A stretch of 64,000 bases of DNA from Promethearchaeota archaeon (GTDB lineage Archaea > Asgardarchaeota > Lokiarchaeia > Sigyniarchaeales > SOKP01). The notes below the pieces were generated by a model. That model was not told the DNA's origin, searched no databases, and saw only the letters and a list, made by a program, of their open reading frames with translations. The position numbers were made by a program, and so were the translations under genes. The DNA lies in assembly GCA_019058245.1 (NCBI GenBank), contig JAHPZJ010000020.1, positions 32,001 to 96,000 on the forward strand, read 5' to 3'. Of the stretch, positions 42,920-47,703 are shown piece after piece. The stretch's first letter is position 1. Each line of letters starts with the position of its first letter.

Positions 42920-45304
42920 GTGATAGTTATAGAAGAATTAAAAGAATATAATGGGGTATCCTTAATATCTCCAGAAGTTGAATTTCTCGAGCAGATAGAA
43001 AAACTTATAGGTGAAGCAATTCCATGTCGTGAAGATAGAGATGAAACCAGAAGAAAATCTGCCGAAGTTTATCAATCACCTCAACCTCAAACGACTCAGA
43101 TGGATGCACAGACAATTCTAAATTCCCAGGCTCAAGCTCTTAAATCTCAAGTAGCTGAACAAGAAAGATTGGCACAATTGTCATTAGAAGAATTAGAAAA
43201 AACCTATGAAAGTCAATATCTGGCTCAAATAAATCCAGTACTGCAATCAAATATTAAAGCACAGCTTAATTCTCTAATTCCAATGTTGGGAGAAAATCAT
43301 CCTTCTATCCAACAAATGAAATCTATGTTAGAAATGGATGAAGCTAAGGCAAAACAAAAAGCAAAAGCAATGGCTAAGTTTATGCAAGAAAATTTCAAAC
43401 TTCAATCTATAAATAAGGAAGCTATCAATAGAATAAATGAAATTATATATTCTCAAATATCACTTGAAGATTTAGAAAAAGAAAGTATCAAATATTATAA
43501 TTCAATGATTACACCTGAATACCAAGCTCAATTAAAAGCCACTATAAATGTTGGAATACAAGAATTAGGTGCAAATGATCCTACTTTTGCGGGATTAACC
43601 CCATTATTAGGAATGAGTGAAGAAATGGCAATTCAATCGGCTAAACAATATGCAAAATCTATATATCAAAATATACAAAACATGCTTGCGCAATATGGTC
43701 TACAAGCTCAGACACCCCAACCAAATATTGAAGATATTAATAAACAATATGGGAAAGAAGTGTCTGAACGCCCAGTAAAAGTAGACCATTTCGGTTTCGT
43801 GTGTGATAATAGACGCATAATTGGTCTAAATTTAGTAATGAAAGAATTGGATATTTTACCTGATACAATTGGGAATTTATCAGAATTACGAGTCTTAACA
43901 CTTAAGTGGAATAAAATCGATGCTTTACCTGAAAATTTTGGGAATCTGATAGAATTAGAAGAATTGGATTTAGAGGGTTCTTGGTCCACAAATGATGATA
44001 AAGCAATATACAATGGAATTTTGGAACTTCCTGATTCGTTTTGCAATTTGAAAAACCTAAAAATCCTTAATATTAAGGAAAATGGATTGAGATCATTGCC
44101 GAATAACATTGGACAATTGAAATCTCTTCAAAAACTTTTCATAGATACAAATCGAATACCCGAAATTCCAGAATCTATAGGAGAATTAACTGATTTGAAT
44201 TTTTTGAGCCTGAGATCGAATAGAATCTCAAATGTTCCTCCTTCCCTTTGTCGATTAGAAAAAGTATTTCAATTAGATCTTTCTTACAATCTTATTGAAA
44301 AAATTCCAGATTGCATTAACCAGCTTAAATCAGTAAATATGCTTTATATAGGAGATAATAAAATAACAGAAATCCCCCTTTCAATAGCAAATTTGGGATC
44401 ATTAGAACGATTATATCTAGGTGGAAACCAGCTGACAGAAATACCAGAAGTAATTACGAAACTTCCATTAACAGTTCTAAATATATCTAATAATCAACTT
44501 AAAAATCTTCCCTATTTTATATATACAATGGAATCTCTGAAGGAGTTAGACGTAAAAGAAAATCAATTTTCAGAGGAAGAACAAGAAATTGCTCAAAGAG
44601 ATACCAGCGCAATTTTAGAATATTGTCGTCAACGTGCAAGTATTGCAATTATGCTAATTTATACAGAAATGGATGCGGAAGCTCATCGTATATCAGACTT
44701 GGCAATGTTTCTGGAAGAAAAAAGCGAAATATTTGCTATTCTTCCTCCTATAGAGGCTAACCTTAATGCTACAGACTTAGTTTTATTTCTTGCTACTACT
44801 GGGTCTATTAATTCTCCAGATATGGTTCAAATTTTAAGAAAAGCTAAAAGTCAAGGTATTGAAGTAGTCCCTTTAAAAGGTTTAGATGTTGGTTGGGGCG
44901 ATCTAGCAATCATAGATCTCAGTCGTGAGTTGGGTCATGAATTTACTCCAGAGGATTTTACTGGTTTTTGTGAAAATGTCTATAGCTATGTTCAACAATT
45001 AAAACGTTCTCATAATATCTTTAAAGATAAATCTGTAATCTTAAAAAAAGAAGAAGCTGTGGAGGTTAGTGATCCTACAGGTTTTGGCACTTTTAAAGCT
45101 GAACTTTATCGTATCATCCATCTTTCTGAAATGAAAGAATTTTTTGAAAAGAACAAGCCATCATTAACGGGAATATGCAATAGCTTACAATCAGCAAAAA
45201 TTGGTGGAGAAGGATTGTTTCTTACTCAACTTTCAGGTTTATTCATGGGATTTATGCAACAAAAGAAGGCTATGGCACAATTTTATGGAGGTGAGCAACA
45301 GTGA
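42920..45304 (+). CDS. LRR protein with inserted helical repeat domain and C-terminal degenerate (pseudo) TIR domain
   Basis: About 11 LxxLPxxIGxLxxL repeats; C-terminal region aligns with the neighbour's TIR but has NSPDMVQIL instead of NSIDCAHEL. Confidence 0.82.
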   Translation: MIVIEELKEYNGVSLISPEVEFLEQIEKLIGEAIPCREDRDETRRKSAEVYQSPQPQTTQMDAQTILNSQAQALKSQVAEQERLAQLSLEELEKTYESQYLAQINPVLQSNIKAQLNSLIPMLGENHPSIQQMKSMLEMDEAKAKQKAKAMAKFMQENFKLQSINKEAINRINEIIYSQISLEDLEKESIKYYNSMITPEYQAQLKATINVGIQELGANDPTFAGLTPLLGMSEEMAIQSAKQYAKSIYQNIQNMLAQYGLQAQTPQPNIEDINKQYGKEVSERPVKVDHFGFVCDNRRIIGLNLVMKELDILPDTIGNLSELRVLTLKWNKIDALPENFGNLIELEELDLEGSWSTNDDKAIYNGILELPDSFCNLKNLKILNIKENGLRSLPNNIGQLKSLQKLFIDTNRIPEIPESIGELTDLNFLSLRSNRISNVPPSLCRLEKVFQLDLSYNLIEKIPDCINQLKSVNMLYIGDNKITEIPLSIANLGSLERLYLGGNQLTEIPEVITKLPLTVLNISNNQLKNLPYFIYTMESLKELDVKENQFSEEEQEIAQRDTSAILEYCRQRASIAIMLIYTEMDAEAHRISDLAMFLEEKSEIFAILPPIEANLNATDLVLFLATTGSINSPDMVQILRKAKSQGIEVVPLKGLDVGWGDLAIIDLSRELGHEFTPEDFTGFCENVYSYVQQLKRSHNIFKDKSVILKKEEAVEVSDPTGFGTFKAELYRIIHLSEMKEFFEKNKPSLTGICNSLQSAKIGGEGLFLTQLSGLFMGFMQQKKAMAQFYGGEQQ

Positions 45305-47703: not shown

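Follow-up and report, generated by a model that had tools for sequence, protein, structure and literature searches.

A linked pair of LRR-TIR proteins in Lokiarchaeia with complementary TIR faces and a predicted composite NAD+ site

[quoted passage not shown] In AbTir, SARM1 and ROQ1, the NAD+ site arises from the head-to-tail BE interface. This site lies between the BB/alphaB/alphaC side of one TIR and the EE side of the next, the EE surface being made of betaD, betaE and alphaE (Manik et al., 10.1101/2022.05.07.491051). Here we describe two genes in a 64,000-nucleotide stretch, hereafter the window, of a Promethearchaeota archaeon of the class Lokiarchaeia (contig JAHPZJ010000020.1, positions 32,001 to 96,000, forward strand). 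They encode P0001, an 800-aa leucine-rich repeat (LRR)-TIR protein that is the catalytic-half subunit (45301..47703, + strand, open reading frame with a GTG start), and P0002, a 794-aa LRR protein with a pseudo-TIR, located directly upstream (42920..45304, +). As judged from their sequences, the two genes are coupled, inherited jointly and complementary in the TIR motifs they keep. We lean slightly towards the view that their products form an obligate soluble heterodimeric receptor-enzyme with one composite NADase site.

An earlier note on this DNA had described a soluble LRR-TIR receptor with about 22 LRRs joined to a C-terminal TIR, an IFISHA motif at 47047, a GAG codon for E656 and a helical tail, and our analysis recovered each of these features. 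The LRRs of P0001 occupy aa 41-555 (45421..46965, +) and consist of 22 regular 23-aa repeats, whose starts span aa 41-523, followed by a capping repeat (Pfam LRR_14, E 3.5e-71). The concave-face residues of the N-terminal repeats are nearly invariant across orthologs. The repeats join the TIR domain (aa 581-715; 47041..47445, +) directly, with no intervening Roc or COR, and IFISHA begins at aa 583. The BB loop and alphaB (CEQDLSGNIDEFMD, aa 616-633; 47146..47199, +) are nearly invariant in the active clade, the loop being intact with its Gly and Asp residues (CEQDLSGNID). The alphaC motif D652-C-A-H-E656 (47254..47268, +) keeps the catalytic Glu, encoded by GAG at 47266-47268 and present in all active-clade members, while the usual Trp of the WxxxE motif is replaced by Asp652, a non-aromatic residue invariant in the clade. 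The EE-surface segment is eroded, with SQPPSIEY replacing the family SRELGxEF (47356..47379, +), and alphaE no longer carries its KR (Y713-A714). A C-terminal tail of four helices (aa 739-799; 47515..47697, +) is the main predicted heterodimer interface. No P-loop motif was detected, no Roc, COR or NB-ARC was returned by the Pfam scan, and no transmembrane (TM) or signal helix was seen, the maximum 19-residue hydropathy being 1.02, all of which agrees with the earlier description.

The TIR of P0001 was missed by full-length and aa 560-800 Pfam scans, by PADLOC, by NCBIfam, whose matches were generic LRR and below cut-off, and by single-sequence PDB searches. When aa 560-725 were scanned alone, Pfam TIR_2 (PF13676) was matched with E 1.4e-4 and 22.8 bits, the curated cut-off being 28; that cut-off is cleared, at 31.4 bits, by a paralog from this genome that is 47% identical, and TIR_2 is matched by 75 of 113 family members. 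The AlphaFold2 (AF2) model, made from a 113-row alignment, shows the flavodoxin-like five-strand/five-helix TIR fold in the expected strand/helix order, with a separate four-helix tail (predicted local distance difference test, pLDDT, 92.0). The Foldseek check proposed in the earlier note upheld the TIR fold, AbTir (7uxu) being the best match (E 1.2e-5, TMt 0.76), while in VIA-align TIRAP (Z 13.6, root-mean-square deviation 3.0, 136 aligned), Hydra TRR-2 (13.5) and SARM1 (13.2) were tied. A family-profile alignment restricted to the TIR placed the E656 column on the Glu of C. elegans TIR-1 and Cat1, and also of TLR6, in keeping with a catalytic-type Glu. The top two PDB matches of the family profile are prokaryotic enzymatic-type TIRs, TLR6 is third (E 1.2e-4), and TLR2 and TLR1 also rank; the profile matches do not separate Toll-like receptors (TLRs) from bacterial TIRs.

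P0002 is a paralog of P0001, the two sharing 31% identity across the C-terminal 317 aa. It is built of LRRs with a helical insert in their N-cap, followed by a TIR-like domain and then a tail. The pseudo-TIR (44642..45028, +) lacks the SHA motif, has an 11-aa deletion in the BB loop and carries Ile638 in place of the catalytic Glu (44831-44833, +), but its RELG (44924-44935, +) and KR (45002-45007, +) are invariant. The N-cap insert (43157..43705, +) contains two tandem all-helical repeats of ~90 aa that are 38% identical, a repeat found as one copy in two other genomes. Its AF2 model is helical (pLDDT 85.6), and no clear match was obtained in the PDB (best E 0.21, best Z 6.1), in the atlas (TM <0.3) or among shorter proteins, a result that does not imply a new fold. 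Eight regular and further irregular LRRs follow (43817..44569, +), and the protein ends in a C-terminal helical tail (45077..45289, +). At the junction with P0001 (45287..45304, +) a Shine-Dalgarno-like GGAGGTGA (45287-45294), placed inside the last codons of P0002, precedes a GTGA stop/start overlap. A similar stop/start junction recurs across orthologous pairs, pointing to translational coupling of the two genes; a promoter/terminator scan was uninformative.

The association of the two genes is tight. The P0002 N-terminal domain was found in 15 of 400 Asgard genomes and stands beside a top-scoring P0001 ortholog in 15/15, and the same pair is also present on a distant JGI metagenome contig. 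Within the genus the distribution is patchy (11/54 genomes), and the pair holds a fixed spot among housekeeping genes. No active gene lacking a partner was seen where flanks were adequate, and in one genome an extra, divergent copy of the catalytic-half gene adjoins a pair (L055:5149-6561). Of the receptor envisaged earlier, the solubility and the N-LRR/C-TIR order hold, but it is not a stand-alone protein: its gene is a member of a fixed pair, and an EE surface of its own is missing. Synteny comparison within the genus revealed no defence island around the pair, PADLOC matched neither TIR, and no conserved effector gene of the kind represented by ThsA in Thoeris was found adjoining the pair, although an effector may be encoded at an unlinked site.

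Comparison of motif columns against 197 other family members revealed that losses in the two clades are reciprocal. The P0001 clade, and not the partner clade, keeps the betaA Ser S586, the BB loop, alphaB, C653 and E656, while the P0002 clade, and not the P0001 clade, keeps the betaD Pro, RELG, the Phe residues around betaE/alphaE and the alphaE KR. S586, the BB loop, C653 and E656 are kept jointly in nearly all family members and lost jointly in the partners. The ratio of non-synonymous to synonymous substitution rates (dN/dS) mirrors the motif split: it is 0.084 in the catalytic half of the active gene vs 0.209 in its EE half, and 0.098 vs 0.068 in the respective halves of the partner gene, both genes being under purifying selection. 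The LRR concave face, with a dN/dS of 0.29 vs 0.30 at convex positions, gave no diversifying signal. The designation of P0001 as a pattern receptor is left unsupported by this purifying selection and by the lack of a defence island.

In addition, seven pairs or fusions outside the focal clade (L090, L098, L100, L101, L107, L116, L118) combine one catalytic-half and one EE-half TIR each, the layouts being tandem, divergent, convergent or fused. In P0022 (L101), P0051 and P0075 a single LRR-TIR-LRR-TIR chain contains both TIRs, one of them BB-intact and the other BB-degenerate. None of 52 solitary LRR-TIRs, taken from fetched loci with at least 1.5 kb either side of the LRR-TIR, is split. Two tandem LRR-TIR pairs have both TIRs complete (L059:197-4176 and L060:4918-8903) and may represent the state preceding the split. 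The tree requires about five changes for each half-type, which suggests that the split arose repeatedly.

The TIR+tail fragments of P0001 and P0002 were then folded together with NAD. The complex scored 0.77 vs 0.00 for the best control; the mark set for this score is attained by 58/80 solved complexes and 2/110 mismatched pairs. The runs share at least 84% of contacts, and partner pLDDT is at least 76. The highest-confidence contacts are tail-tail. Residues 620-625 of P0001, in the BB loop, contact residues 648, 650, 669-671 (REL), 690, 693-694 and 697 of P0002, so that a BE arrangement of the P0001 BB loop on the P0002 EE face is predicted. This geometry, with the loop placed on the RELG face, had been written down before the prediction was made, and the prediction agreed with it.

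It appears from these results that P0001 and P0002 very probably form a heterodimer; BE geometry within it is likely, and cleavage of NAD+ by the pair is a good, if slightly weaker, expectation. The two proteins would constitute an obligate 1:1 unit in which the C-terminal tails clamp both chains and the P0001 BB loop, resting on the P0002 EE face, provides a single composite NAD+ site. Because P0002 is without a BB loop and P0001 without an EE face, such a heterodimer would be blunt at both BE ends, and it would neither activate itself nor extend through BE contacts into a filament. The site would be turned on by a conserved cytosolic ligand bound to the LRRs or to the P0002 helical insert. 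The Trp of WxxxE governs cyclisation, and cyclising TIRs keep an aromatic residue there (10.1101/2022.05.07.491051); as this residue is Asp652 in P0001, the product would probably be ADP-ribose and nicotinamide, not cyclic ADP-ribose. The output would more likely be a bounded signal than bulk NAD+ depletion. P0001 alone, even if it is an enzyme and is forcibly oligomerised, is predicted to be inactive because its EE surface is lost. A role of the pair in antiviral or anti-microbe defence is conceivable, although we would place it somewhat below an even chance.

Several observations weigh against this interpretation. AbTir also requires inter-strand contacts, so that a single dimer may be insufficient (10.1101/2022.05.07.491051), and Trp-to-Ala substitution lowers activity in several TIRs, so that D652 may mean weak or different chemistry. 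The catalytic Glu is retained in the non-enzymatic TLR1/2/6/10 (PMC7075850), and its presence alone is thus no proof of NADase activity. Regarding the split, the motif sets were defined on the focal pair and are hence circular for it; the seven other pairs are the only outside test, kin among them are non-independent and two are marginal (EE score 6), and the nominal p-value for the split is accordingly too favourable. In approximately unbiased (AU) tests, a single origin could be rejected neither for the catalytic-half TIRs (p 0.057) nor for the EE-half TIRs (p 0.179). As for the model, its best-resolved contacts are tail-tail, and the BE contact may simply reproduce TIR assemblies that have already been solved; moreover, paralogs tend to pass the complex test.

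The TIR-region profile matched 102 of 400 Asgard genomes, 101/161 in the host class and 1/239 elsewhere, the latter weakly, absence here signifying no match to this profile. Outside the host class, 53/239 Asgard genomes carry generic TIR_2 domains, and the restriction to Lokiarchaeia therefore belongs to this TIR clade. The relatives are Promethearchaeota, including P. syntrophicum MK-D1 with a solitary homolog, which confirms the Asgard host lineage. An exhaustive protein search gave 756 matches, the top ones being mostly soluble LRR-TIRs. A further 29 of the top matches are membrane proteins that carry either a beta-propeller/TSP3 ectodomain or multipass TM segments, and none of the 29 has an LRR ectodomain; no family member among those examined combines LRR, TM and TIR in one protein. 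TM-TIR genes of the clade were confirmed in genomes of the host's family. In Lokiarchaeia the clade is seen on proteins with a signal anchor, beta-propeller (LVIVD, SBBP), TSP3, TM and TIR, and also on multipass TM-TIRs (L103:2004-9595, L104:101-6982, L106:5080-7008 and L102:4484-7531; proteins P0086-P0156), some in tandem arrays of three. Their topology is Toll-like, with non-LRR ectodomains. No relative was confirmed on viral contigs. Matches labelled Ignavibacteria (L056), Nanopelagicaceae, Anoxychlamydiales and Actinomycetia were interpreted as binning contamination; in the case of L056, the flanking gene and the protein match a Loki locus.

The host genome encodes five TIRs. Three of these lie apart from the pair, namely two complete LRR-TIRs that are solitary and a short TIR protein without LRRs (G000:C23:84677-86578, C30:142205-143878 and C13:72968-73717), and they are possible cross-talk partners. 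Many ~800-aa TIR_2 proteins in tandem arrays, apparently of a different TIR family, were noticed in genomes of the genus (G200:C80, G214:C44, G218:C156, G203). A 482-aa protein, P0021, has three consecutive TIR domains and no LRRs.

One alternative is that the heterodimer is a non-enzymatic scaffold that signals by protein-protein contact, in the manner of TLR1/2/6 or MyD88/MAL, with a structural Glu and possibly with other same-clade TIR proteins as partners; the genome encodes three more TIR proteins. Adaptor TIRs tie with enzymatic ones in the structural matches, TLR6, TLR2 and TLR1 share the Glu and rank among the profile matches, and the WxxxE Trp is absent from P0001; however, S586, the BB loop, C653 and E656 are kept or lost as a set, as fits an active site, and both Foldseek and the top two profile matches point to prokaryotic enzymatic-type TIRs, so that we consider a scaffold unlikely. 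A toxin/inhibitor arrangement, in which P0001 would be an NADase assembling on its own or together with other complete TIRs of the cell, while P0002 would act as a dominant-negative cap that is shed upon sensing, has a parallel in the repression of RPS4 by RRS1. It would also fit the upstream, antitoxin-like position of P0002, the filament termination expected of a protein without a BB loop, and the failure to see an adequately flanked active gene that is partnerless. Yet the EE face required for self-assembly is lost from P0001 and is the most constrained part of P0002, and the one-chain fusions of both halves (P0022, P0051, P0075) favour cooperation over release, which makes this arrangement quite improbable in our opinion.

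Equally improbable, in our view, is that the pair acts in abortive infection as a classical anti-phage effector, depleting NAD+ upon detection of a variable viral protein. The pair is fixed among housekeeping genes across the genus, neither TIR is matched by PADLOC, the concave face carries no diversifying signal and the predicted dimer is blunt-ended, against which can be set the defensive function of most characterised prokaryotic TIRs, the patchy occurrence in the genus and the expansion of the family with many sensor domains. Finally, it might be argued that P0001 is a stand-alone cytosolic pattern receptor preserving the ancestral state of animal TLRs: the domain order is identical, the host is an Asgard archaeon, TLR6 is the third-best profile match, the same TIR clade is found on single-pass membrane proteins, and solitary homologs with a complete TIR exist. 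P0001 is not stand-alone, however; TLR LRRs are extracellular, an ectodomain type met in none of the 29 TM-TIR members; and the clade is nearly restricted to one class, although other Asgard classes have other TIRs. Such receptor architectures are also known to arise in parallel (PMC2858798), and the position assigned to eukaryotes, within or next to Heimdallarchaeia (PMC12222021), is outside the class containing this clade. We regard this explanation as very improbable. The relevance to the origin of TIR immunity that the earlier note had seen is therefore not borne out by the distribution. Descent of TLRs from this clade is unsupported, since the clade is nearly confined to Lokiarchaeia, though it is conceivable, TLR6 being among the better profile matches.

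The neighbourhood of the pair was also considered. A nadA and an isochorismatase-family gene flank it (window 38421-40332, -) and a nicotinamidase lies downstream (47825-48526, +). An NAD-salvage module was rejected as part of the system, given that no more than three other close genomes (L004, L042, L051) have the nicotinamidase next to the pair, most others lacking it at the same syntenic spot. A gene divergent from the pair across a gap of <100 bp (window 40322-42841, -) encodes a WD40 protein of 839 aa whose C-terminus contains a hydrophobic segment; this gene was likewise set aside, its synteny being limited to the genus. Further features of the window are an 827-aa SIR2-like + TPR protein ~17 kb upstream (23806-26289, +), which is another candidate sensor-coupled NADase, a third LRR protein of 536 aa with internalin-like repeats, an N-terminal region lacking an assignment and no TIR match (35547-37157, +), and an intact ThiF-family gene of 245 codons (49194-49931, -) with no common start codon, for which callers of open reading frames give 120 aa.

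Our literature search, many subscription papers being outside its scope, turned up no account of LRR-TIR proteins from archaea or of a prokaryotic split TIR site. What is added here is that the active subunit has lost its EE face, that the same split recurs in other pairs and fusions, and that the predicted interface matches it. More broadly, and only tentatively, Lokiarchaeia may hold an undescribed TIR repertoire, comprising soluble LRR-TIRs as well as receptors of the beta-propeller/TSP3-TM-TIR and multipass TM-TIR types, where TIRs, once duplicated, would on more than one occasion have divided the composite NAD+ site into BB/catalytic and EE halves; obligate, filament-proof two-part receptors would result, with plant sensor/executor logic and no nucleotide-binding leucine-rich repeat receptor (NLR) ATPase. 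A natural pair with one face per subunit offers a minimal two-fragment system for testing the "executor BB loop + sensor EE face" model, and poses the question whether a single BE dimer suffices for catalysis. The pair further indicates that an Asgard class with cultured members has a large TIR family, most of it unannotated, which is open to study in a host because MK-D1 has a solitary homolog. On present evidence, the pair has no bearing on TLR ancestry.

Among known systems, animal TLRs share with P0001 the N-LRR/C-TIR order, and TLR6 shares the C-x-x-E-L helix. Unlike TLRs, P0001 has no signal peptide or TM and carries LRRs and TIR on the same side, with EQDLSG for the Box 2 RDxxPG and VC for the Box 3 FW (motifs: PMC7075850); it is not a TLR, and orthology to TLRs is unsupported. 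Nor is it a Roco protein, as LRR-Roc-COR(-TIR) proteins carry Roc and COR between LRR and TIR, both of which are absent here. The enzymatic TIRs AbTir, TcpB, SPARTA TIR-APAZ, Cat1 and SARM1/TIR-1 share the fold, the catalytic Glu column and the composite BE site, but they are homo-assemblies (filaments, tetramers, octamers) with both faces on each TIR and mostly with WxxxE, whereas in P0001/P0002 the faces are on two genes and Trp is replaced by Asp. Solitary Lokiarchaeia LRR-TIRs (P. syntrophicum MK-D1, P0010), annotated merely as LRR proteins, belong to the same TIR clade and have the same N-cap/LRR/TIR/tail layout, but they retain the two faces of the TIR and lack a partner gene.

The closest likeness in logic is to the Arabidopsis paired TIR-NLRs RPS4/RRS1 and CSA1/CHS3, which are also linked gene pairs. 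The plant executor TIR keeps the Glu and the BB loop, as does P0001, while the sensor TIR, like that of P0002, has no Glu and a short BB loop, is the proposed donor of the DE/EE face and is encoded by a gene carrying an integrated domain; a model in which the RPS4 BB loop meets the RRS1 DE surface has been put forward (10.1101/2025.04.11.646618). Unlike the plant pairs, P0001 and P0002 lack NB-ARC and P-loop and have the TIR C-terminal after the LRRs, their genes are co-directional and overlapping, and their dimerisation is predicted to occur via the helical tail instead of the AE interface. Furthermore, P0001 has lost its own EE face, while RPS4 can be autoactive. The resemblance to the plant pairs, as far as this comparison goes, is one of analogy and not of descent.

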